In this document: one piece after another, positions 4,560 through 24,633 of the stretch
How positions within the stretch are numbered: the first letter of the stretch is position 1
Layout: every line of letters starts with the position of its first letter
Assembly: GCA_051747585.1 (NCBI GenBank)
Contig: JBNJGH010000043.1
Location: 1 to 25,427 of the forward strand
Source: Candidatus Rifleibacteriota bacterium
GTDB lineage: Bacteria > Muiribacteriota > Ozemobacteria > Ozemobacterales > Ozemobacteraceae
Direction of reading: 5' to 3'
Length of the DNA stretch: 25,427 nt
Program-made: the position numbers and the translations under genes
The notes under the pieces: model-generated
The model's database searches: none
What the model saw: only the letters and a program-made list of their open reading frames with translations
What the model was told of the DNA's origin: nothing

Positions 4560-7454
4560 TTGGGTATAATGAAGCGAAGAATAAAAATGGTTTTACCTCT
4601 CATTTTTGCATTCGTTTTAACTCTGATGCCTTATTTATTACTGGAATTTACTCAGTTTCAACGTAATTCAGTGCAGCAAGAGCGCAATCTATATCTCTGG
4701 GAACAAAAAGCCAATAATTATCTTCAATTTTTTTCAATTCTCTGGTCTTATGAGTTGCAGTTAAAAAGGCGTATGATGGTTTTTCGCCGAAACCAGGGTG
4801 ATAAAATCATTAAAAGCAATGACCCGGCAAAAGCATTTGCCGCCGAGTTGAAAAAAAGATTTCCTGAAAGCTGGTTGCCTCTTGTTTCTTATGCAGGTAT
4901 ATGTGACTCCGATGGTGAAAATTTCAAACTTTTCAAGGGTGATTTGTTTGGAAATAGTCAGCGTTTTGTTTTCAAAACTATCCTCTCTGCCCTTGCTGGC
5001 GATTCCGAGCCGCAGGGATATCAAAAGAAACAACTCGATACATTTGTAAGCGGCAGACTTAAAAATGATTTAAATTTTGATTTAATAAAAAAGTATCGGC
5101 GCGGAAAAATTTGCTACGTAAAATACAAAAAGCAGAACCGTCTCATGATCTGGGATAAGATTCAAAATGGTAATAAAAAAATTGTTTATTGTTGTTTTTT
5201 TAAAAATGAATTATTAAGCGTTGATGAATCTTTGAAACTGGCATTGAAAATGTTGTCCGGGCCTTTTCCTGATGTTGATGCGGCGCTGGTTCCCGTAGAA
5301 AACAGGCTGCCCGATTATGATCCTGTTACCATCGATAACTTTGGTTCCCAGAGGGTAATGTCCGAGCTTCTTCTAAAAGAACAAGAGGGAGTATCGAGAA
5401 AAGAGCTGTTACCTGTTGGAAAAGTGGTTAAACACAGTGATTCCAACGTCATTCGTGGATTTGTCGCTTCTAGAATACCCTATGAGATCTGGCTGTTTAA
5501 ACCACCGGAAAAGAAAATTGTCAACGAGGCTGAAAAATTTATTTTCCTTTTTCGACTGGGTTTCTTCTCTATCTGGCTTTTATTTTTTACCCGGGTTCTT
5601 ATAACCGCTAAACCTCTTGGCTTAAGTATTTCAGGTTGGCTGAGTTTTATTTTTATTGCCATTGGAATATTGCCGTTGATAGTTCTTTATATCGCTGGTA
5701 CATATCATCTGGAGTCTTCGGCCTTTCGTTATGAACAGCAGACCTTGAAAAATATTATAAGGCAGTTTGAAGAAGCCGACGTGTCGGGTGGTTCAATTTT
5801 AACTGAATTTAGAAGACTTTGTCGAAAAATAGAAAGCCGGCCTTTCTGGAAAAAGGCTCTGGTAAAATGGGATCCCCAGGAGTGGAAAAAAGCCTTGAAA
5901 AAAGTCCCTGAATTGTTTGCAAAAAGTGGGCTTGAGTTAAGTTTTTGTTGCATTTATCCGCCTCCTGTAGCTGAATTAGAAATTCCTTATTATGACAGCG
6001 GTTTTGGCAAAAAACTTTCAAAGCGTGACAAGCATTTGGCCAGTTTTTATTATAACTGGGTAATGAAGTCATATTTTAATTTAAATCCCGATTTGACTTT
6101 TGGTAAGGATTTCCAAATGGAATTTTTTGAAGGCAAGGAAGGAGAAGAAATTCTTCGTCTCTTTATGGGAAATCGGGCGGATAGCGATTATTTTGAAATG
6201 GGCAACCAGCGCCAGTTTTTTTATCAGAATTTTATCATGAAAGACGGTATGATTCGTAACTGGTATTTTTTCAAAGCAGATGTTGTTGCACCTTTTCGCA
6301 ACTATCTCAAAGCCAAGGTAACCGATTGGAATGATATTAACAAAAATACGAATTTTGGTCTGGCAAAAGTAGACTATCCCGACTCGAAAACTATTCTACC
6401 CAAAAGCACGGGGAACAATAGAGATTTTATCCGTTTAAACAATCATGCCAGTCATTTAATTGAATTGGCAGCATCAACCAATTCCAGAATATTCAAGCAG
6501 AATGAAAATACCATGGTGGTTGTTTATCCTTGCCGCAAATCAGGTAATTTTATCTTAGCGGCGGTTATAGCATTTAGAGATATGCATGAGCGCATAAGAA
6601 CCCAAAGCTATATTCTGGCTTTAATTCTGATATTGTTAACAATTCCGGTATTTTTTATATCCCGATTTATCGCGACTTATCTGGTTAGACCGCTCAAGGC
6701 AGTTGAGGCCGGTTTAACCAGAGTTGCCGATCAGAACTTTACCTCGAGAATAAGTCTCAATAGACAGGATGAGCTGGGAACCCTGGCTGATGCTTTCGAT
6801 AAAATGGTTGATGGAATTATTGAAAGGCATAATTTAGGCAGATTTGTTTCTGCGGGTCTGGATAATAAAATCGCGAGCGAAGATAATGTAATCGCAAACC
6901 AGTGGGAAAAAAATTATGCAGCTGTTTTATGCCTCGATATAAGGGGTTTTACTACCCTCAGCGAAAAATATCTTGTTAGAGATATAGTTTCGATGTTAAA
7001 CGAGCATCTTTCCGAAATGGCGTTATGCATAACCAAAAGTGGAGGATTGATCGAGCAGTTTATTGGTGATGCCATTCTGGCCGTTTTTCCCGGTGAGGAT
7101 GAAAAACAAGCGGCTAATAAAGCTATTAGAGCGGCTATGCGTATGATGGCGGCTCACAATAAACTGGTCGAAAAAAGAAATAATGAAGGAAAATTTGTCT
7201 ATAAAGTGGGAATTGGGATTGAAGTGGGACAAATAGTTTCGGGAGTTGTTCAACTGGGCGACAAAAGCGAATATGTCATGATTGGCACTTCGAGAAGCCG
7301 CTCAGAAGAACTTGAATCTCAATCTAAACAGGGTAGAGCTTCAAGAATAATTTGTTCTGAAAAGGTTAAAAATCTTACGGATGATTATAGTTTTATAAAA
7401 CTCCCTGATGGCGATGGCTGGGAAATTGTTCTTCCGGAGGATCAGGAAGTATGA
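4560..7454 (+). CDS. Membrane-bound HAMP + class III cyclase-domain protein, C1-like half (metal-binding Asp pair only)
   Basis: About four TM segments, HAMP (RPLKAV...DELGTLADAFDKM), cyclase motifs LDIRGFT and FIGDA. The specificity Lys and catalytic Asn/Arg are replaced. Confidence 0.85.
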   Translation: MGIMKRRIKMVLPLIFAFVLTLMPYLLLEFTQFQRNSVQQERNLYLWEQKANNYLQFFSILWSYELQLKRRMMVFRRNQGDKIIKSNDPAKAFAAELKKRFPESWLPLVSYAGICDSDGENFKLFKGDLFGNSQRFVFKTILSALAGDSEPQGYQKKQLDTFVSGRLKNDLNFDLIKKYRRGKICYVKYKKQNRLMIWDKIQNGNKKIVYCCFFKNELLSVDESLKLALKMLSGPFPDVDAALVPVENRLPDYDPVTIDNFGSQRVMSELLLKEQEGVSRKELLPVGKVVKHSDSNVIRGFVASRIPYEIWLFKPPEKKIVNEAEKFIFLFRLGFFSIWLLFFTRVLITAKPLGLSISGWLSFIFIAIGILPLIVLYIAGTYHLESSAFRYEQQTLKNIIRQFEEADVSGGSILTEFRRLCRKIESRPFWKKALVKWDPQEWKKALKKVPELFAKSGLELSFCCIYPPPVAELEIPYYDSGFGKKLSKRDKHLASFYYNWVMKSYFNLNPDLTFGKDFQMEFFEGKEGEEILRLFMGNRADSDYFEMGNQRQFFYQNFIMKDGMIRNWYFFKADVVAPFRNYLKAKVTDWNDINKNTNFGLAKVDYPDSKTILPKSTGNNRDFIRLNNHASHLIELAASTNSRIFKQNENTMVVVYPCRKSGNFILAAVIAFRDMHERIRTQSYILALILILLTIPVFFISRFIATYLVRPLKAVEAGLTRVADQNFTSRISLNRQDELGTLADAFDKMVDGIIERHNLGRFVSAGLDNKIASEDNVIANQWEKNYAAVLCLDIRGFTTLSEKYLVRDIVSMLNEHLSEMALCITKSGGLIEQFIGDAILAVFPGEDEKQAANKAIRAAMRMMAAHNKLVEKRNNEGKFVYKVGIGIEVGQIVSGVVQLGDKSEYVMIGTSRSRSEELESQSKQGRASRIICSEKVKNLTDDYSFIKLPDGDGWEIVLPEDQEV

Positions 7455-10400
7455 AACTACCCAGATTGCTTGCTGTCATAAGTTCCTTTGTATTTATTTT
7501 TATTTTAATCCTTATTTTGCAGGGCAATATCAGCAGAAGCGAAAAAAGTTCTGAAGATTTTATCAGTCAGGCTTATACAATCTGCGAGGAAATGCAATAT
7601 AAAGCAGATGTTGATCTTCAGATACAGCAATGGTTCGCAAAATTTCGCGAAGAATTGAATGAAAAGCCTGGAACATATTTTCAAGGATGGAAAGAACCGG
7701 AATTTCTTGCTCATAATTTGCCACCCCATACCCTGGCAATTGCTGAAGCCAGTGAAGATGGTAGAATGCTGAGATTTGCAAATATAAAAGGAAATATGAA
7801 AGAAGGGTTGGCAGAACTCTTTGTTCTTCTTTCAGTTAAATACAAGGTTAAATTTTCTGATTACATCCTTAAAAAAGAGTTCTCAGACAAACTTGAAGAA
7901 TGTAATGACCTGCTTCAGGATTTTATCGGTTTTGATGCTGCCAGGATGAATATGATTGTGCTGCGCTCCTCAAGAATGTCTGTGTATAACGATGTAGACC
8001 ATAGAAATGTCTGGTTTTACTGGGACAGGTTTCAAAAAAAGGGCGGGGGCGAATTTTTTATTTTCAGCAAAATACGAGTAGAAGATCTCGAGCCTTATTA
8101 TGCTTATAGATCATACCTTAAAAACAATCTCTACCAGAGATTTTCCTGCGCTTATTACAATGAAGAAAAAAGAACTTTTATTGCCAGTCGAGATTTTGAG
8201 AGGAAGGTAGATGAGGATAGTCTCAAGGCTATAAGCAGAGCTGCTGCCAGTATTGAAAAGAAACATGCTGATCAGTCTGAAATGCAGTTTACCCGTTTGA
8301 AAACCAAAAGTAAGCTTATTATTCTGGGCAGATACATTGGAATGGCAGGCCTTAGGCCTGTAGTCGCCTTTGATTTGCCTGCCAGAAATTACGGCAAGTT
8401 AGCCGACCCGGCCAAACTGCCCTTTCTGGTTATTCTATCTCTGGTTGTCGTTTTCCTGGTTAATGCTCTTGTTTTTGACCGGGGGCCGGTTGTCAGAGTC
8501 GGTTTTGTGTTGTTGATGGCAATCAGTTTTGCTATTCTAATGCCTTTTTTTCTGGGACAGTCGGTCTTCGATCTAATCTTAAAAGAAGCCTACGAAAAAG
8601 AACGTCTGAAAATTGAAAGGGATTTGCACCAGACTCTTATCGGTATAGACAGCGGATTTAAGTTTAATCAACTTAATTTGGCTCAGCGTATAGAGGAAAT
8701 ATTTAAGCGGCCTGAGATTATCAATAAACTGCATCAGGAAGAAGTTAGCTCTACTAGTGCAGATTTGCAGAATTCAATTACGGCCGAGCTGGTTGAAATT
8801 TTCTTTGCTGACCTGACTGAAGGTTACTCTGAAGTTCCTGAACAATATAGAACATTGAATGCTCTTATTATTGCCGGTCCCAATGGTTTTATAAGATATT
8901 TCAACAAATATCGCGATAAAAAAATCTTTTCAGAAAACACTCTGGATACGATAGAGTCAATGTATATTATTTTAACTACCTTCAAGAATCAATTGTTTAA
9001 ACTTTACCCTGAGGAAAGCTTTGATCCCGAATTTTACCAGCAGCATCAAAAAGATTCCGAAAGCAAAATAGAAAAACTCAAGTTTGAAGAAATTCGTGAT
9101 AAATTGCAGAAATCCCTTGGCCCTGAGAAATTTCACGAAATCATGTACAGCAAAGTTTTAAGTATGACTTTGCGTTCTACATTAGGGCGGACTTTGATTA
9201 CCAGCTATCCAGTAAAATACAAAAATAAATACCGATATTTTGCCAGTGTTGTATGGGATGAATTTTCCGTTTGTCCTACATATTTAAGACGAGCATTTGA
9301 TCTCCGTCTCAAGGCAGATAAAAGAGAAATCGAAGCTTCTGAAAACTCGTTTTTTCAAAAGCTGGACCCGGCAAACTATATTTCAAGAAAGCCTATAGTG
9401 CTTATGGCATACGATGGCTTTCGATTTGATGCTTTTTCTACTCTCGATAATGAGCCACAGGTGTTGAGCAATCTTACCAAAGATACTTATAGAAGTAAGA
9501 TGCTGCTGAAGCACGAAACCTCAGGCAAAGATGCTTCACTTTATGAGATTTTTCCCGGTAAAAACATGTCGGTTTATGTTATTGGTGCTAAACAGAATAT
9601 CACTCATCTGCAACAGATAAGAAGATTGAGAACCAGCACTTTTATTATTGCAATGATTATCTATCTTATCTTTGCCTTTTTTGCGGCAAAAAATCTAAGC
9701 AGATCTTTTACCAGCCCATTGCAGCATATTTTATGGGGTCTGAATAGAGTTGAGAAAAATGATTACTCAGTTCGTCTTAAAGCAAATCGCGAAGATGAGT
9801 TTGGCTCTATTTCGCGGGCGTTTAACAACATGACCCGAAGACTGAGCGAAAAAGATCTGCTGGGCAAATTTGTATCTGATCCGGTTAAGCGCCTGGCTGC
9901 AGATCCTGAACTTTTACTTCAGGCCTGTGAAGGAGTAGAAGAAGAAGTAACTATCGTATTTGCCAGGCTGGAAAATTTTTCTGAGCTTGCTTTACAAACC
10001 AGAGAAGATGAGGCCAGACAGTATCTTGAATTCAGTTTAAGCAAATTTTTCAAGCGAGTCGAAGAATGTGGCGGAGAAATCGATAAGGTTATAGGTTCTC
10101 AGCTTCTGATTGTCTTTTTTCACCGTAAACTTGGCAAGAAAAAGGCTGTTGAAGCAGCCAAAAAACTTGCTGAAACTATTACAAAAGATTTTGCCGGCAA
10201 ACACAGCTTTAAACCTGTTTTCGGTGTCAATATGGGACGGGTCATTTCAGGTATTATCGGCGCTCCTTCAGTAAGAATGGATTATACAATCATAGGTGAT
10301 CCGGTTAATGTGGCTGCTCGATTATGTTCTCTGGCAAACAGTAAAAATCGACCCATAATTATTTCCGGACAGGTTAAAGAAATACTGGGAGAAGATGTTA

Positions 10401-10474
10401 AAGCCGAAAGGATTAATATTGAAAAAGTCAGGGGCAAGCGACAGGAGGTTAAGGTATTCAGTCTCTTCAGCTAG
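7451..10474 (+). CDS. Membrane-bound HAMP + class III cyclase-domain protein, C2-like half (K/T/N/R only)
   Basis: ATGA overlap with the previous gene. TMs, HAMP (SPLQHI...DEFGSISRAFNNM), DYTIIGDPVNVAARL intact. Both metal-binding Asp are replaced (FARL, IGSQ). Confidence 0.85.
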   Translation: MKLPRLLAVISSFVFIFILILILQGNISRSEKSSEDFISQAYTICEEMQYKADVDLQIQQWFAKFREELNEKPGTYFQGWKEPEFLAHNLPPHTLAIAEASEDGRMLRFANIKGNMKEGLAELFVLLSVKYKVKFSDYILKKEFSDKLEECNDLLQDFIGFDAARMNMIVLRSSRMSVYNDVDHRNVWFYWDRFQKKGGGEFFIFSKIRVEDLEPYYAYRSYLKNNLYQRFSCAYYNEEKRTFIASRDFERKVDEDSLKAISRAAASIEKKHADQSEMQFTRLKTKSKLIILGRYIGMAGLRPVVAFDLPARNYGKLADPAKLPFLVILSLVVVFLVNALVFDRGPVVRVGFVLLMAISFAILMPFFLGQSVFDLILKEAYEKERLKIERDLHQTLIGIDSGFKFNQLNLAQRIEEIFKRPEIINKLHQEEVSSTSADLQNSITAELVEIFFADLTEGYSEVPEQYRTLNALIIAGPNGFIRYFNKYRDKKIFSENTLDTIESMYIILTTFKNQLFKLYPEESFDPEFYQQHQKDSESKIEKLKFEEIRDKLQKSLGPEKFHEIMYSKVLSMTLRSTLGRTLITSYPVKYKNKYRYFASVVWDEFSVCPTYLRRAFDLRLKADKREIEASENSFFQKLDPANYISRKPIVLMAYDGFRFDAFSTLDNEPQVLSNLTKDTYRSKMLLKHETSGKDASLYEIFPGKNMSVYVIGAKQNITHLQQIRRLRTSTFIIAMIIYLIFAFFAAKNLSRSFTSPLQHILWGLNRVEKNDYSVRLKANREDEFGSISRAFNNMTRRLSEKDLLGKFVSDPVKRLAADPELLLQACEGVEEEVTIVFARLENFSELALQTREDEARQYLEFSLSKFFKRVEECGGEIDKVIGSQLLIVFFHRKLGKKKAVEAAKKLAETITKDFAGKHSFKPVFGVNMGRVISGIIGAPSVRMDYTIIGDPVNVAARLCSLANSKNRPIIISGQVKEILGEDVKAERINIEKVRGKRQEVKVFSLFS

Positions 10475-15968: not shown

Positions 15969-18059
15969 GTGAGCAAAAAGAACTTCAGAACCTACAGACT
16001 TCAGGTGGTGGTTTTCTTTTCATTTCTGGCGCTGTTTTCTCTAATTGTCGCCGGAATAATTTTATATGGTTATCGAACCAACACCGAAATAATGCTTAAA
16101 ACTTCTGACGAACTGCTGTATCAGATCTCAGAAACCATTATCAAGCAAACGGTTAAACACTTGGAACCGGCGCAAAAAACCGGTTATTTGCTCAGGCGGA
16201 TGATTGAAAGAGGAACTACTTTTAACAGCCGTCCAGATCTAATCGAAACCCTCTTTATGGAAACTCTTGATATTTACCCCCAGTTTTCTGCCGTATATCT
16301 GGGCGATGAAAGCGGCAACTTTATTATGTCGCGTAGAAAAATAAACGGCGATTTTACTATAAAAGTTATTTCCCGTACTTCTGAGCCTGTAGGCGTAATA
16401 GAGGTAACCCGTACATCTGGGGGCGAAATGATTAGTACAGACTCGAGTATGGTTATCGACTACGACCCACGCGAAAGACCCTGGTATATAGCCGCCAAAG
16501 AGCAGGAGAAGGCTGTCTGGAGTAGTGAATACCGGCTTTTTTCTGATCAGGTGCCGGGCATTACCAGTGCGCATCCGGTTTTTGATGACAATGGGGCTTT
16601 TCTGGGAGTAATAGGAATAGATTTCAGACTTGGGGAGCTTTCAGAATTTTTAAAAAGCTTGAAAATTGGAAATTCGGGAATTGCCTTCATATTAGATAAA
16701 ACAGGTAATGTTCTTGCCTATCCTGAAAGATCAGACATTCTTGATCGTGTCAATGCCTCACCGCGCTCACCTATACAGGAAGAAATAAATAGCGGCTGGA
16801 TAGGCAAAGCGCTGAATATTTTTCTTGAAAATGAACAAAGAAAATTTATTTTTACTCATAACAGCATTCGCTATATTGCATCTTTCAGACGCTTTCCCCT
16901 AAGCTACGGAAAAGAATGGAACCTGGGCATTGTCGTGCCTGAAGATGATTTTACCGGACCCATTGCCAGAACCCACGAAACAACTCTGCTTTTTTCTTTC
17001 TGGTTACTTATTATTGGCGGATTTTTAACCTCCGCACTTTCGCGAGAGCTTACCGAGCCAATTAAAAGTCTTACTTTCGAAGCAGATAAAATCAAAAGCC
17101 TCGATTTTGAAGGCGAAATAAAAATTAAATCGCCTGTTACCGAAATACAGCGTATGGGCGAAACTATGAATTCAATGAAAAAGGCTTTGAATGCTTTTAA
17201 AAAATATGTTCCTTCAGGCATTGTCCAAAGTCTGGTTTCAACTCGTGACGATGCCAGGCTCGAGGCTCAATCAAAAGAAATAACTCTTCTTTTTACTGAT
17301 ATTTACGATTTTTCTACGATTACCGAGCGTGTGCAACCTGCTGAACTTATGGAGCAGCTTTCATTATATTTCGATGAAATTGGTGCGATTATTCATAAAC
17401 ATGAAGGCACTATCGATAAATATATCGGCGATTCGGTGATGACTTTCTGGGGTGCGCCCCTTAGTGATGATGATCAGGCTTTAAAGGCATGTCGGGCAGC
17501 AATGGAAATTATCGAAGCTGTTGCAAAGCTTAACGAAAATTGGAAAAAACAAAATCGAAACCCTTTGCACACCAGGATAGGTATTAATACAGGAGACTCG
17601 CTCGTGGGAAACTTTGGTTCTTCTGACAGATTCAATTACACCGCTATCGGTGACCAGGTGAATCTGGCCAGCAGGCTCGAGGCGCTGAATAAAATTTATC
17701 TTTCCCGCATTATTGTCAGTGAATCTACCATGCTTAAGGCTTCAGGCGAGTTCGTTTTCAGGCCTTTAGATATTGTTGCGGTAAAAGGAAGGAAAAAAAG
17801 CGTTAAAATTTACCAGCTACTCGGAAGAATTGATGACGAGAAAGCCGAGCAAAATAAAAAGCTTTCTGAGATGACAGTAAAAGCCCTGGAAAAATATCTT
17901 GCCCGCGAATGGAGACAGTCTTACGAGTTATTTCAGGAAATTCTTGGCGAATTTAAAGACGATTATATTTCAGAAATGTATATGATTCGCTGCCGCGAAC
18001 TAAACGAAAAACCTCCGGGAAAAAACTGGGATGGTGTTTTTAAAATAGAATTTAAATGA
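15969..18059 (+). CDS. Membrane adenylate cyclase: TM-Cache-TM-HAMP-class III cyclase, C-terminal TPR-like tail
   Basis: Cache motif YDPRERPWY. Complete catalytic set FTDIYDF, DKYIGD, YTAIGDQVNLASRLE. K and T indicate ATP specificity. Confidence 0.92.
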   Translation: MSKKNFRTYRLQVVVFFSFLALFSLIVAGIILYGYRTNTEIMLKTSDELLYQISETIIKQTVKHLEPAQKTGYLLRRMIERGTTFNSRPDLIETLFMETLDIYPQFSAVYLGDESGNFIMSRRKINGDFTIKVISRTSEPVGVIEVTRTSGGEMISTDSSMVIDYDPRERPWYIAAKEQEKAVWSSEYRLFSDQVPGITSAHPVFDDNGAFLGVIGIDFRLGELSEFLKSLKIGNSGIAFILDKTGNVLAYPERSDILDRVNASPRSPIQEEINSGWIGKALNIFLENEQRKFIFTHNSIRYIASFRRFPLSYGKEWNLGIVVPEDDFTGPIARTHETTLLFSFWLLIIGGFLTSALSRELTEPIKSLTFEADKIKSLDFEGEIKIKSPVTEIQRMGETMNSMKKALNAFKKYVPSGIVQSLVSTRDDARLEAQSKEITLLFTDIYDFSTITERVQPAELMEQLSLYFDEIGAIIHKHEGTIDKYIGDSVMTFWGAPLSDDDQALKACRAAMEIIEAVAKLNENWKKQNRNPLHTRIGINTGDSLVGNFGSSDRFNYTAIGDQVNLASRLEALNKIYLSRIIVSESTMLKASGEFVFRPLDIVAVKGRKKSVKIYQLLGRIDDEKAEQNKKLSEMTVKALEKYLAREWRQSYELFQEILGEFKDDYISEMYMIRCRELNEKPPGKNWDGVFKIEFK

Positions 18060-21243: not shown

Positions 21244-22851
21244 TTAAAAAAGGTTGTCGTTTTGCGAAGCTTCTAGAACAATCGGGCTGCTCAAGAGCGA
21301 CAAGGGCCCGCTTCCCGGAGTAGGTTTGCTGTTTACTCTGCTGTGAGCGGATTTTTCCTGTCCCAGGGAAAATCTTTTTGCCGGAGATGTGGTGTCGCTG
21401 CTTCGTCGGTTCGGACAAATCGATGCATGACCTACGGTTTCGACTTTTATCATGTTTGTTCCGCCGCTTCGGCCAACCGGAAGACCTGCAACCAGAATAA
21501 CAGTATCACCATCTTGTATCATGCCGGTTTTTCGGCTGAGTTTTATTGATTCGCGATACAGCTCTTCAATACTGTCGAATTTATAACCCATAACCGGAGT
21601 AATACCCCAGTTAATGCTTAGTTGATTATATAGCTTCTGATTTGAAACAACGGCAATTATTGGAATTCCGGGCCTGAGCTTGGAAAGCGCCTGTGCTGTT
21701 TTTCCTGTTTCGGTAACGGTTATTATTGCAGCTGCACCTACATTGTAAGCTGTTGCTATTGAAGCGTCCGTAACTGCGCTGGTGCGATCCGGGTATTTTT
21801 CAAACTTGGAAAAAGCTGAATAAATTCTTTTGTAATCAATTGCGTCTTCGGTATTGCGAGCAACCCGGTCAAGAAGCTCGACACAATTAACCGGATATTT
21901 TCCGATCGATGTTTCGCCAGAAAGCATTACGGCGGAAGTAAAATCATATATTGCGTTTGCTACATCCGAAACCTCTGCTCTGGTTGGTCGAGGCGACTTT
22001 ATCATGGAGTGCAGCATCTGAGTTGCTGTTATGACTGGTTTCCCGGCCATATAACATCGTCTGATAATCTCTTTTTGCACTATGGGAACTTCTTCAGGAA
22101 GCAGCTCTACGCCAAGGTCACCTCTGGCAACCATAATTCCGTCTGCTACTTCGAGAATCTGATTGAAATTTACCAGACCCGCATGATTTTCGATTTTTGC
22201 AATTACTTTGATTTCAGGTTTGCCTTCAACATCGAGAATAGCTTTGACTCTTCTAATGGTGTCTTCTGATTCTGAAAACGAGACGGCGATGAAATCAAAA
22301 TCGTTCGCAGCTGCAAATCTAATATCTTCCCGGTCTTTAACAGTAGGGTTGGGAAGATTGAGCTGCAGCCTGGGTACATTTACGCCGCGTTTTGACTTTA
22401 TTATGCCATCATTCATGATTTCACAGACAATGTTTTCATTATCCGGAATACTTATAACCTGTAAATTGATCAGTCCATCGTCGAGCAGAATCGTATTGCC
22501 CGCCTCAATCATTTCAGGCAGTTTATTGAAACTGATGCTTATTTTTTCAGCATTTCCGATTACGTCCTGGGTTGTAAGGGTAATGGTTTTTCCTGTTTCG
22601 AGTTCCAGGCAATCGTTTTCGACTTCACCGGTTCTTATTTCGGGACCTTTGGTGTCGAGAAGCAATGCAACGGGCTTTCCCATTTCTTTTCTGAGTTTTT
22701 TTATTCTTTCGACTCTAGTGCCGTGCTCCTGAAAATCTCCATGGGAAAAATTAAGTCTGGCGACATTCATTCCGGCATTGATAAGATCTTTTAATACATT
22801 TTCTTCTTCTGCGGCAGGGCCAAGTGTGACTAATATTTTGCTTTTTCTCAT
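21244..22851 (-). CDS. pyk: Pyruvate kinase with an atypical C-terminal tail
   Basis: ARLNFSHG, DTKGPEIRT, IAKIEN, GIMVARGDLGVE, ATQMLHSM, PTRAEVSDVANA, MLSGET. Confidence 0.97.
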   Translation of the reverse strand: MRKSKILVTLGPAAEEENVLKDLINAGMNVARLNFSHGDFQEHGTRVERIKKLRKEMGKPVALLLDTKGPEIRTGEVENDCLELETGKTITLTTQDVIGNAEKISISFNKLPEMIEAGNTILLDDGLINLQVISIPDNENIVCEIMNDGIIKSKRGVNVPRLQLNLPNPTVKDREDIRFAAANDFDFIAVSFSESEDTIRRVKAILDVEGKPEIKVIAKIENHAGLVNFNQILEVADGIMVARGDLGVELLPEEVPIVQKEIIRRCYMAGKPVITATQMLHSMIKSPRPTRAEVSDVANAIYDFTSAVMLSGETSIGKYPVNCVELLDRVARNTEDAIDYKRIYSAFSKFEKYPDRTSAVTDASIATAYNVGAAAIITVTETGKTAQALSKLRPGIPIIAVVSNQKLYNQLSINWGITPVMGYKFDSIEELYRESIKLSRKTGMIQDGDTVILVAGLPVGRSGGTNMIKVETVGHASICPNRRSSDTTSPAKRFSLGQEKSAHSRVNSKPTPGSGPLSLLSSPIVLEASQNDNLF

Positions 22852-22944: not shown

Positions 22945-23802
22945 TCAATTGCGCTGTTGTTGTATCATTTGTTCGAGACTTTGCCAGCCTTTAAGCTGGT
23001 CAGGGGTTAAGGTGCAATTGCCTGAAGTTTGTTGGCGGTGTTTTATTGCCCTTAGCCATTTGCGGGTCTTTCTCGGTAGCTGCAATTTTTGATTTACTAC
23101 CAGACCGGTAATTTTCTGTTGCTGGTGTGATCGTAAGACTCTAGTTTTCTTTTTGTTTGGACGGTAAGAAAAATCGGTCAATGCTGTTCGGCTTAGCCTG
23201 AGCAACTCTCTGATTGCCGTGTCATCGTCTTGCATCAAAGAAAAAGTAATGTCGTCGGCATACCTGGTATAGGTTGCGTCATATTTGTTGGCAATGCCGG
23301 CAAGACGTGCATCGAGTCGGTAATTGATCAGGTTGCTCAGTCTGGGGCTGGTGGGAGCACCCTGAGGTAGAGAGCCCCGGTAGGTCGTTAATCTAGTCAG
23401 GAACTCTGCTACTTCGTTGTTCCAGCCGATTTTCTTGAAATAATACTTTACCCGGGAACTTTTAGTCGAGGAGAAGTAATCTTTTATATCAATTTTTATT
23501 ATTACCTTTTTCCCGAGGTGGGGCAGTGCGTTATGAACTATAGATTTCTCAGACTCAAAACCGCAACAGCACAGGTGAGTTTTAAGGCCTGCAAGCAGTC
23601 GGTAGTTAATTAGTCTTTGAATCTTTTTTAGCTCTGCATCGGGAGCTTGAATTGTTCTGATTTTTCCGCTTTTACTTTTTAGTTCGAATTCCCGATAAGC
23701 AGGCTTGAACTGATCAACTTTTATTTGCTTAACTTTTAAAAAGTTTCCCAGGTCATCAAGATTTTTACCGGTTAATTTAGTTATCCAGTCAAAAAGTCCC
23801 AT
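22945..23802 (-). CDS. Retron-type reverse transcriptase, minimal (285 aa)
   Basis: KIDIKDYF, LPQGAPTSP and YTRYADDITFS, plus retron signatures NAxxH (NALPH) and VTG-like KITGLVV. SD GGGAG upstream. Confidence 0.9.
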   Translation of the reverse strand: MGLFDWITKLTGKNLDDLGNFLKVKQIKVDQFKPAYREFELKSKSGKIRTIQAPDAELKKIQRLINYRLLAGLKTHLCCCGFESEKSIVHNALPHLGKKVIIKIDIKDYFSSTKSSRVKYYFKKIGWNNEVAEFLTRLTTYRGSLPQGAPTSPRLSNLINYRLDARLAGIANKYDATYTRYADDITFSLMQDDDTAIRELLRLSRTALTDFSYRPNKKKTRVLRSHQQQKITGLVVNQKLQLPRKTRKWLRAIKHRQQTSGNCTLTPDQLKGWQSLEQMIQQQRN

Positions 23803-23824
23803 TTTCCGCTCCCTTTAATTTAAG

Positions 23825-23850
23825 AAAGGCGCAGCTTTGCCTGCGCCTTT
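23825..23850 (-). terminator. GC-rich 10-bp hairpin between ncRNA and RT start (terminator/attenuator or processing signal)
   Basis: Sense AAAGGCGCAG-GCAAAG-CTGCGCCTTT followed by CTT. Confidence 0.45.
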
Positions 23851-23957
23851 ACCCTGCCAAGAACAGGGTGTTCTTGCACCCATTTAAGAAGAAGCTCTAA
23901 AAAGAGCCCGGCTGACGAAACATCAGCCTGTGCCATTTAAGGCAACGCCAGGGTAAA
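23848..23957 (-). ncRNA. Putative retron msr-msd ncRNA
   Basis: Perfect 9-bp IR (23949-23957/23848-23856; sense TTTACCCTG...CAGGGTAAA) enclosing three small stem-loops and an 8-bp hairpin. Unpaired G at 23948 directly after the 5' arm. Lies directly upstream of the RT. Confidence 0.75.
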
Positions 23958-23985
23958 TTAATTTTAAGATTTTTCAGCCTTAAAT

Positions 23986-24633
23986 TCAAGATAAAATAAA
24001 ATTTTGAATGGCCCATTGACAACAGCCGACCATTATTCCTATTATCCCGCCCAGGCGAATTATCATAGCCATTTCACGATCTGCAATTTTATTGATAATT
24101 CCTTCGAGCTTGTCCAGATCCATGCGGCTGACTTTGTCAAAAACAATGTCATGTACTGAAATCTTTTTTGCCGCTTTTTCTGCCGCTTTATCCAGCAAAC
24201 CAGGGATCTGTTTTTTCAAAGCCGATATTATTTCTCTTTCCAGAAGATCCATAACAGATTTTACCAGGCTGTTGGCGCTGATTGTAACAAAGGGTATTCT
24301 ATCGAGGTATGATTTAATGTAGTTTTTTACTTTTTCTTCTGTTTCAGCGCGATTGTGCTTCATTTGCTCTTCAATAATGGGATCCAGATCAGAGGGTTCA
24401 ACTTTACGTATAAGCTCTTCTATATTGATTAACTCGCCCTCTACAATTTTGCCCAGATTTTTAGCCAGCTCTTCCTGGCGCTTGGGTAAAAGTCCCTGAA
24501 ATTTAAACAGGATAAGATTTACCTGTTTTTTGGGGTGAAACAAAGCCTTTATAGCAAGCCAGTTGGTTATCCAGCCGATAAAACCGCCTAACAAGGCAGA
24601 AATAAAAAGGCTCAGCCAGATACTTTCAATCAT
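23986..24633 (-). CDS. DUF445/YheB-like membrane protein
   Basis: N-terminal GGFIGWITNWLAIKALFHP, QGLLPKRQ.ELA, and C-terminal E..MI.RLGG.IG..VG..Q, typical of DUF445. Confidence 0.85.
   Translation of the reverse strand: MIESIWLSLFISALLGGFIGWITNWLAIKALFHPKKQVNLILFKFQGLLPKRQEELAKNLGKIVEGELINIEELIRKVEPSDLDPIIEEQMKHNRAETEEKVKNYIKSYLDRIPFVTISANSLVKSVMDLLEREIISALKKQIPGLLDKAAEKAAKKISVHDIVFDKVSRMDLDKLEGIINKIADREMAMIIRLGGIIGIMVGCCQWAIQNFILS

Follow-up and report, generated by a model that had tools for sequence, protein, structure and literature searches.

A stand-alone retron with a compact reverse transcriptase and a covarying RNA, from an apparently unnamed retron lineage

The locus and its features

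The window considered here is the whole stretch of DNA that was analysed, 25,427 nucleotides in length. On its minus strand a DUF445 gene is followed by a 184-bp spacer containing a structured non-coding RNA (ncRNA), by the open reading frame (ORF) of a reverse transcriptase (RT) and, after a further 94 bp, by the pyruvate kinase gene (Table 1). The Pfam matches of both flanking genes confirm the position that an initial annotation, made from the sequence alone, had given to the RT unit, and every RNA element which it had listed upstream of the RT was found again at the same coordinates. Two features were absent from that annotation and were seen here, namely a GC-rich hairpin with a T-rich run past the 3' arm of the RNA and a sigma70-like pair of boxes. 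Since the DUF445-RNA and RNA-RT junctions are each spanned by contigs from separate sediment runs, the layout is no assembly artefact. The host genome assembly is 93.6% complete, and the GC content along the window reveals no foreign island. Inspection by eye of other translations from the window (4560-10474 and 15969-18059) suggests three large membrane proteins whose C-terminal domains are adenylate-cyclase-like.

Table 1. Features of the retron locus and its flanking genes, in window coordinates.
Feature	Position	Strand	Basis
Pyruvate kinase (pyk) gene, downstream flank, outside the retron system	21244-22851	-	Pfam
Retron reverse transcriptase ORF, 285 aa, no fused domain	22945-23802	-	ORF list and Pfam
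GC-rich hairpin (10 bp, 23825-23850) with T-rich tail in the ncRNA-RT gap; putatively terminator-like or a processing signal	23820-23850	-	
Retron ncRNA (msr-msd), 110 nt, closed by a 9-bp a1/a2 stem	23848-23957	-	Folding, covariance
a1/a2 inverted repeat, 3' arm	23848-23856	-	Complementarity, covariance
Opposing G	23857	-	Faces G23948, as in retrons
msd template: linker and short hairpin (23858-23876), predicted end point	23858-23893	-	
Stem-loop 3 (SL3), probable reverse-transcription stop	23894-23907	-	Hairpin conserved in position
msr stem-loop 2 (SL2), most conserved element, predicted RT-recognition hairpin	23910-23928	-	97% of cells paired, 5/8 pairs compensatory, invariant loop bases
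msr stem-loop 1 (SL1)	23931-23944	-	4/4 aligned pairs compensatory
Predicted branching G (2'-OH primer)	23948	-	First base past the 5' arm, opposite G23857; homologues alike
a1/a2 inverted repeat, 5' arm	23949-23957	-	9/9 complementary; 6/8 aligned pairs compensatory
Putative sigma70-type ncRNA promoter (-35, 23984-23989; -10, 23961-23966)	23961-23989	-	9/12 consensus; overlaps the DUF445 stop codon
DUF445 gene, upstream flank, outside the retron system	23986-24633	-	Pfam

The reverse transcriptase

The RT contains the motif NALPH (N91-H95; NAxxH, region X), D105, YADD (Y181-D184) and ITG (I231-G233; VTG-like, region Y), and the residues H95, D105, D183, D184 and G233 are invariant in 46 sequences. 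As RVT_1 was the only Pfam match, the protein is, as first described, a 285-aa RT with these motifs and no fused domain. The NCBIfam retron models score it at 191-210 bits, compared with 48 and 43 bits for the group II intron and DRT2 models. The AlphaFold2 model (pLDDT 92, pTM 0.87) has the Ec86 RT as its best structural match (TM 0.83), Foldseek ranks 1-17 are all retron RTs, and a profile search against solved structures also places Ec86 closest (E 3e-59). Model scores and fold are thus retron-like; a position of the RT outside the retron clades, which the initial annotation had named as refuting its proposal, was not observed. The only other RT match in the genome (L269:1369-2844, G000:C198) is a protein of 491 aa with an FADD motif, apparently a group II intron maturase.

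A conserved RNA family

At the locus itself, the segment 23960-23846 folds with -49 kcal/mol (z -4.58), and none of 200 shuffled sequences was equally stable. A search of Rfam with the locus RNA gave no match, while the covariance model built here, R1, scores the ncRNA at 79.9 bits (by construction) and finds a single copy in the genome. The arm-G...G-arm layout was detected in 36 of 42 loci with close RTs, one of the 36 being mis-parsed. Of the six loci without a detected layout, four were subsequently picked up by the covariance model, as was the mis-parsed one. For the alignment 29 of the 36 loci were used, six with a long msd and the mis-parsed one being dropped. In these homologues 95.3% of the cells of the a1/a2 stem, SL1 and SL2 taken together are paired, a value which falls to 34-51% once the partners are slid against each other, and 15 of 20 pairs are compensatory against 8.6 in shuffles, covariation counts which kinship among the homologues inflates. 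The two G contexts served as search anchors, so that their invariance in the alignment is partly by construction; the same two-G pattern is visible in the raw upstream DNA of homologues, independently of the anchored script. Applied to 83 sources, the model matched the window, 13 of 17 untrained clade loci and 1 of 65 other sources, the latter weakly. The upstream structure is therefore conserved and covarying among homologues, as the initial proposal of a retron implied. Weak matches to the RNA model were also recorded at L076:5734-5837 and L132:246-323; the RT of L076 lies outside the clade, yet the SL2 sequence is identical.

A survey of 49 loci, from which four mis-parsed ones had been left out, describes the RNA further. 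The G-to-G span has a median of 92 nt. In nearly all loci the msd hairpin starts on the opposing G or only a few bases away from it, and differences in its length reflect extension of the helix; its loop is often one same short sequence across phyla, on stems that differ. A hairpin at the position of SL3 is present in 41 of the 49 loci (21.7 expected from shuffles), and the upper bound of the RT-DNA, taken up to SL2, has a median of 53 nt (range 46-108). For the locus under study the predicted RT-DNA is likely to measure 36 nt if SL3 halts copying, with a maximum of 52 nt. A DNA-specific stable msd loop was also considered: a loose pattern, used with no control, fits 32 of the 49 loci and is absent here, and it was not taken as proof.

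As regards expression, a hairpin of at least -10 kcal/mol lies past the 3' arm in 48 of the 49 loci, followed in 35 of the 49 by at least four T within 8 nt, and 39 of the 49 have a TTG (-35-like) box 40-52 nt upstream of the branch G, a count that has no shuffle control. Because of this recurring box, the downstream hairpin and the T-rich tail, the ncRNA is probably transcribed from a separate promoter and probably ends in a terminator-like element. At this locus the scan for sigma70-like boxes is, taken alone, not above chance (eight found, 4.7 expected), and a strict terminator scan did not flag the GC-rich hairpin with its T-rich tail.

RT and RNA together very probably constitute an active retron making a short msDNA. 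For 36 of the 98 retrons in a published census no RT-DNA was visible in E. coli (10.1101/2024.01.25.577267), and type VI retrons are reported to stand outside the constitutive pattern (10.1101/2025.10.22.683967). Together with the very short msd, the latter report would suit a functional ribonucleoprotein (RNP) that makes hardly any msDNA, or none, in the resting state and starts synthesis only upon a trigger, or an RT serving mainly as an RNA-binding protein. Nevertheless, the invariance of all catalytic residues and the retention of the msd hairpin at or near the opposing G, with its length changing by helix extension, argue for copying, and such a resting RNP is regarded as quite improbable.

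Position among the retrons

In FastTree phylogenies of 129-131 PADLOC-labelled RTs the lineage forms its own clade with a support of 1.0, apart from the sampled types X, XI, XII, XIII, I-C, II-A and III-A and from clade 11. The trees were made without types I-A, I-B and IV-IX and without Ec107 itself, whose PADLOC and PDB scores for this RT are lower; the supports are FastTree local values, deep nodes are weak, and an unfinished IQ-TREE tree, which carries no supports, keeps the clade. When 35 representatives were added, a wider clade (0.97) was obtained, splitting into a main branch (0.72) and a sister branch (0.86). The latter includes RTs fused to TIR, CHAT, EAD5, trypsin and DUF1266 domains, and also two unfused RTs (L116, L166) for which R1 likewise gives a match. 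Clustered at 50% identity, the proteins scoring 315 bits or more form at least 66 clusters, and the named hosts include Planctomycetota, Verrucomicrobiota, Hydrogenedentes, Armatimonadota, Acidobacteria and Riflebacteria. As judged from the PADLOC scores and the sampled tree, this is a separate clade of retron RTs with its own RNA family, apparently unnamed.

Within the sister branch the C-terminal domains are swapped between trypsin, TIR, CHAT, EAD5 and transmembrane plus DUF1266 (P0313, P0320, P0324, P0326, P0328, P0337, P0146-P0148, L035); these fusion RTs sit outside clade 8, and their ncRNAs were mostly not seen. Other appendages comprise a C-terminal HTH_40 domain (P0145, P0290, P0305, P0309, L113) and a fused IHF/HU-like domain (P0257), and matches of about 720 aa such as P0149 and P0151 consist of two RT-like halves in tandem. 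Recoding was considered for members flagged with an internal TGA and was dropped, since the two that were checked have a normal C-terminal stop codon.

Retrons without an effector have already been described, in the Ec107 branch of clade 2 and in clade 11 (PMC7736814), so that the novelty lies in the lineage and its traits and not in the idea. In the openly accessible literature, preprints included, no description of this lineage was found. Three motifs of its RNA are absent from three supplement files of the PMC copy of 10.1101/2024.01.25.577267, files which may not contain all sequences. The reference tree of PMC7736814 may carry members of the lineage as clade-less entries. In the accessible part of the supplement table of PMC13712802 there is no Riflebacteria row by name, and planctomycete rows without typical partners are binned as XIII, X, III-A5 and clade11-B, some of which may belong here.

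With the retrons of clade 11 and of the Ec107 branch the lineage shares an architecture in which msr-msd and RT stand without an accessory gene, a setting among housekeeping genes and taxon-restricted inheritance (PMC7736814; PMC13712802 for clade11-A/B). Unlike clade 11, whose RTs measure about 420 aa, the RT here has 285 aa, and it scores 215 bits with the PADLOC outgroup model compared with 364-438 bits for members. The RT of a Tsukamurella clade11-B locus, with neighbours as in the SPIRE table row, is 36% identical and groups elsewhere, and model R1 had no match near the RT of four clade-11 loci, the Tsukamurella one included. By PADLOC scores and tree the RT is therefore outside clade 11. 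Whether the low-confidence planctomycete clade11-B rows of SPIRE correspond to this lineage was considered and not confirmed, and true clade-11 RTs do occur in Planctomycetaceae (L049:1160 and L100:5600), where they have an amphipathic-looking N-terminus and a different, longer ncRNA. The Ec107-like PADLOC model gives 213 bits (rank 16 of 57), whereas the loci that score 287-340 bits with it group with III-A; by its RT the locus is thus no member of the Ec107 branch, Ec107 itself not being among the tree sequences.

The best PADLOC model is RT_XIII, with 263 bits, and an SL2 loop motif similar to that of the lineage occurs upstream of some type XIII-like RTs; moreover, type XIII (clade 10; Mx162, Mx65, Ne144, Sa163) is reported to be vertically inherited. 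The core type XIII RTs, however, reach 450-530 bits and form a separate clade, whereas lineage members score 215-310 bits. Type XIII-like loci have a neighbour of about 550 aa, the SWIM protein by position and size, in 15 of 27 cases, with no homologue found beside the lineage or in the genome. With its RT outside clade 10 and neither SWIM nor WGR/ARM partner genes found, the retron does not belong to type XIII. Type X (clade 7) is similar in its short RT (a model of 272 positions, full-length match of 240 bits) and in its Planctomycetota and aquatic hosts, and is a weakly supported neighbour in one tree (0.73), in which a single type X RT was sampled and deep nodes are weak. At a true type X locus, in contrast, RT_X scores 401 bits compared with about 200-250 for lineage members, and R1 had no match. 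Type X also has a large upstream partner (an IHF-like/VHL membrane protein) and no ncRNA model, and no such gene was found beside the lineage or in the genome.

Retron-Eco1 (Ec86, type II-A3) is the closest solved structure and has the same opposing-G layout. It carries an NDT effector and an msDNA of 86 nt, whereas here there is no effector and the predicted msDNA is 36-52 nt. Types XI and XII, in which the RT is fused to trypsin or TIR (clade 8), resemble the sister branch in the kinds of C-terminal fusion; they differ from the present retron in their RT clade and in the fusion itself.

Neighbouring genes and the search for a partner

Across 44 loci no neighbour is shared between phyla, apart from repeat proteins and two pairs of housekeeping genes whose offsets differ. 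Among 100 neighbours within two genes of the RT, PADLOC matched one, an ABC ATPase; these were taken from 111, redundant Riflebacteria being dropped, with simple calling of ORFs of at least 70 aa. Pfam assigns the neighbours to murB, aldolase, TrkH, HflX, RlmL and similar families. As a positive control, the same script recovered the shared adjacent partner in the type XIII-like loci (15/27). The observation that the unit has no toxin-like gene, made at first for this locus, consequently extends to the whole lineage. The linked or fused effector that marks the tripartite defence retrons (types I-XIII) was not found, and it is practically certain that the retron locus has no effector in cis. 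A search for a concealed toxin ORF of small size, of the sort found in type VI, led to its rejection: no small ORF is conserved, and all that recurs are antisense shadows of the RT, fragments whose ends shift. DUF445 was likewise discarded as a partner on account of its distribution, since it occurs in genera without the retron and, with this query, was not found in a genus that bears it (g4, see below).

Neither the effector clusters of types XIII, X, II-A and III-A nor SWIM had a match in the host genome, at its 93.6% completeness. None of 78 viral loci reached the scores of the lineage (best 260 bits, compared with 315-466), and the 59 plasmid and eight phage records that match do so at no more than 42% identity, no member of the lineage being found in either collection. 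The viral contigs contain a retron-like RT clade of their own (L193, L200, L201, L203, L206, L215, L246; support 0.999) with PADLOC scores of 234-277 bits and no strong type. Its neighbours include an upstream protein of about 510 aa in six, a MoxR-like AAA ATPase in three and a downstream protein of about 290 aa in three, and it may represent an undescribed phage-borne RT system.

Distribution, inheritance and selection

Within the host family (51 genomes) the RT is present in all genomes of the genera designated g1 (6/6), g10 (1/1) and g4 (7/7), and was not found in g5 (0/15), g12 (0/7) or g7 (0/4). The DUF445-pyk gap houses the retron in g1 and g10; in g4 it lies elsewhere. The corresponding site of g5 is empty in five of 15 genomes and holds other genes in six, pyk falling outside the fetched stretch in four; this gap is variable (L313-L329), being empty or containing the gene of a secreted-looking protein or a proline-tRNA-ligase-like gene. 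Since the retron was not found in any of the 15 genomes of this sister genus, it is dispensable. A sample of Planctomycetaceae has it in 18 of 151 genomes, yet in 5/7 and 16/19 within two genera, with changing neighbours, and in one further family the RT is found in three of 81 genomes. Carrier genomes are kin and not independent, and these presence counts are descriptions rather than tests. For g1 and g10 the RT tree agrees with the DUF445 tree, and dN/dS ranges from 0.058 to 0.21 in the nine unsaturated pairs of 13, drawn from four lineages. Within g1 synonymous sites are saturated while RT and RNA are intact. The retron is thus retained vertically and genus-wide under purifying selection, in the manner of a core gene.

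Two explanations are affected by this pattern. A decaying relic of a defence retron that has lost its effector would agree with the fused effectors of the sister branch and with the repeated absence from related genera; nevertheless, the low dN/dS values in four lineages, the intact frames and the preservation of RT and RNA in g1 despite synonymous saturation largely refute decay, which is considered very unlikely. A domesticated role outside defence, in which the msDNA hairpin or the RNP would act in cell physiology (a nuclease or a DNA-binding protein, for instance, might be drawn off by such a decoy) and would need no toxic partner, is better served: presence is near-fixed in several genera, inheritance is vertical and under purifying selection, the retron is neither near defence genes nor found on mobile elements, the msd loop is often conserved across phyla on varying stems, and domestication has been suggested for vertically inherited retrons (PMC7736814). 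On the other hand, the retrons of tested function in the literature surveyed are anti-phage, immune-type domains are present in the sister branch, and whole genera lack the retron. Such a role is possible, although we consider it unlikely on the whole.

The N-terminal helix and the membrane

Residues 2-11 of this RT are predicted to form an amphipathic helix (AlphaFold2 pLDDT 45). Among the 120 closest proteins, the N-terminus meets an amphipathic-helix test in 65 and has a transmembrane helix in seven; 43 fail the test, many of them still starting with a similar aromatic pattern, and five are truncated. Of the 66 cluster representatives, 26 have predicted transmembrane helices at the N-terminus and two at the C-terminus, 17 show the amphipathic pattern and 21 neither; members from Planctomycetaceae mostly have one or two predicted helices, and one subgroup has 8-10. 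All of these membrane signals are hydropathy predictions, from which it appears somewhat probable that the RT associates with the membrane through its N-terminal helix. In 23 clade RTs (P0122-P0144) an N-terminal domain of about 450 aa with 8-10 predicted transmembrane helices has no Pfam or Atlas match; the ESM Atlas returned nothing informative for this fusion, and for the RT only generic retron clusters.

These helices raise the question of a self-contained defence system, in which the membrane helix of the RT would itself be the effector, as a minimal fused version of Ec48, and loss of the msDNA would lead to membrane damage by the RT. Many members do have one to three transmembrane helices, and 8-10 in the subgroup, and defence by Ec48 depends on the transmembrane helices of its two-helix effector (10.1101/2020.06.21.156273). 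Against this, only some 10 residues precede the RT core here, the appendages are non-homologous across the lineage, and similar N-termini occur in the clade-11 planctomycete RTs. They are also present in many ordinary proteins. A self-contained system of this kind is accordingly held to be improbable. A wider formulation, namely a cross-phylum lineage that shed its toxin and became core-like, with a membrane-anchored RT whose msDNA hairpin would be among the smallest, and with a task different from classical sequestration of a toxin, either the RT helix being the effector or the particle having a role outside defence, is judged possible, though on the unlikely side.

Proposed mechanism and significance

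The reading preferred here joins these elements into a domesticated stand-alone retron with a short msDNA, tethered to the membrane and acting on an unlinked host partner; taken as a whole it is tentative, and we would give it somewhat less than an even chance. According to this scheme, the RT would bind the 110-nt RNA through SL1-SL2, prime from the 2'-OH of G23948 by a 2'-5' bond, as in Ec86-type retrons, and copy the 3' hairpin and the linker into a branched DNA of 36-52 nt. RNase H, of which an RNase HI is encoded in the host genome, would then trim the template, the short DNA remaining bound to the RT, again by analogy with Ec86-type retrons. To judge from the sequence, its own promoter and the terminator-like hairpin could supply the ncRNA in excess over the RT mRNA, and the RT-RNA-DNA particle is likely to sit on the inner membrane, tethered by the N-terminal helix. 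There it would guard or regulate a host protein encoded elsewhere, and, in the least certain step, phage or DNA-stress proteins that damage or capture the short hairpin would release the unlinked partner.

The role of a sentinel acting in trans on such a host protein is favoured in view of the immune domains in the sister branch and of the defensive function of tested retrons, and is put forward with some reserve, at a chance a little under even. Several observations weigh against the combined reading: no trans partner was found in the genome; the fixed presence, the housekeeping neighbours and the lack of phage or plasmid members are unlike most defence systems; the sister genus g5 was found to do without the retron; and the N-terminal helix is modelled with low confidence.

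The role of effector-less retrons is stated as open in PMC7736814. The present lineage is a third such case, independent of the other two; it comes with a defined RNA model and spans at least 66 protein clusters, and it could reveal the task of retrons that lack the customary killer partner. Its clean presence and absence in sister genera, the sister branch with fused immune domains and the RNA model make this function testable by phylogenetic profiling together with deletion. Finally, an RT of 285 aa with an RNA of 110 nt is a compact candidate for retron-based editing tools, and the msd hairpin varies naturally across the lineage from about 15 to more than 60 nt.
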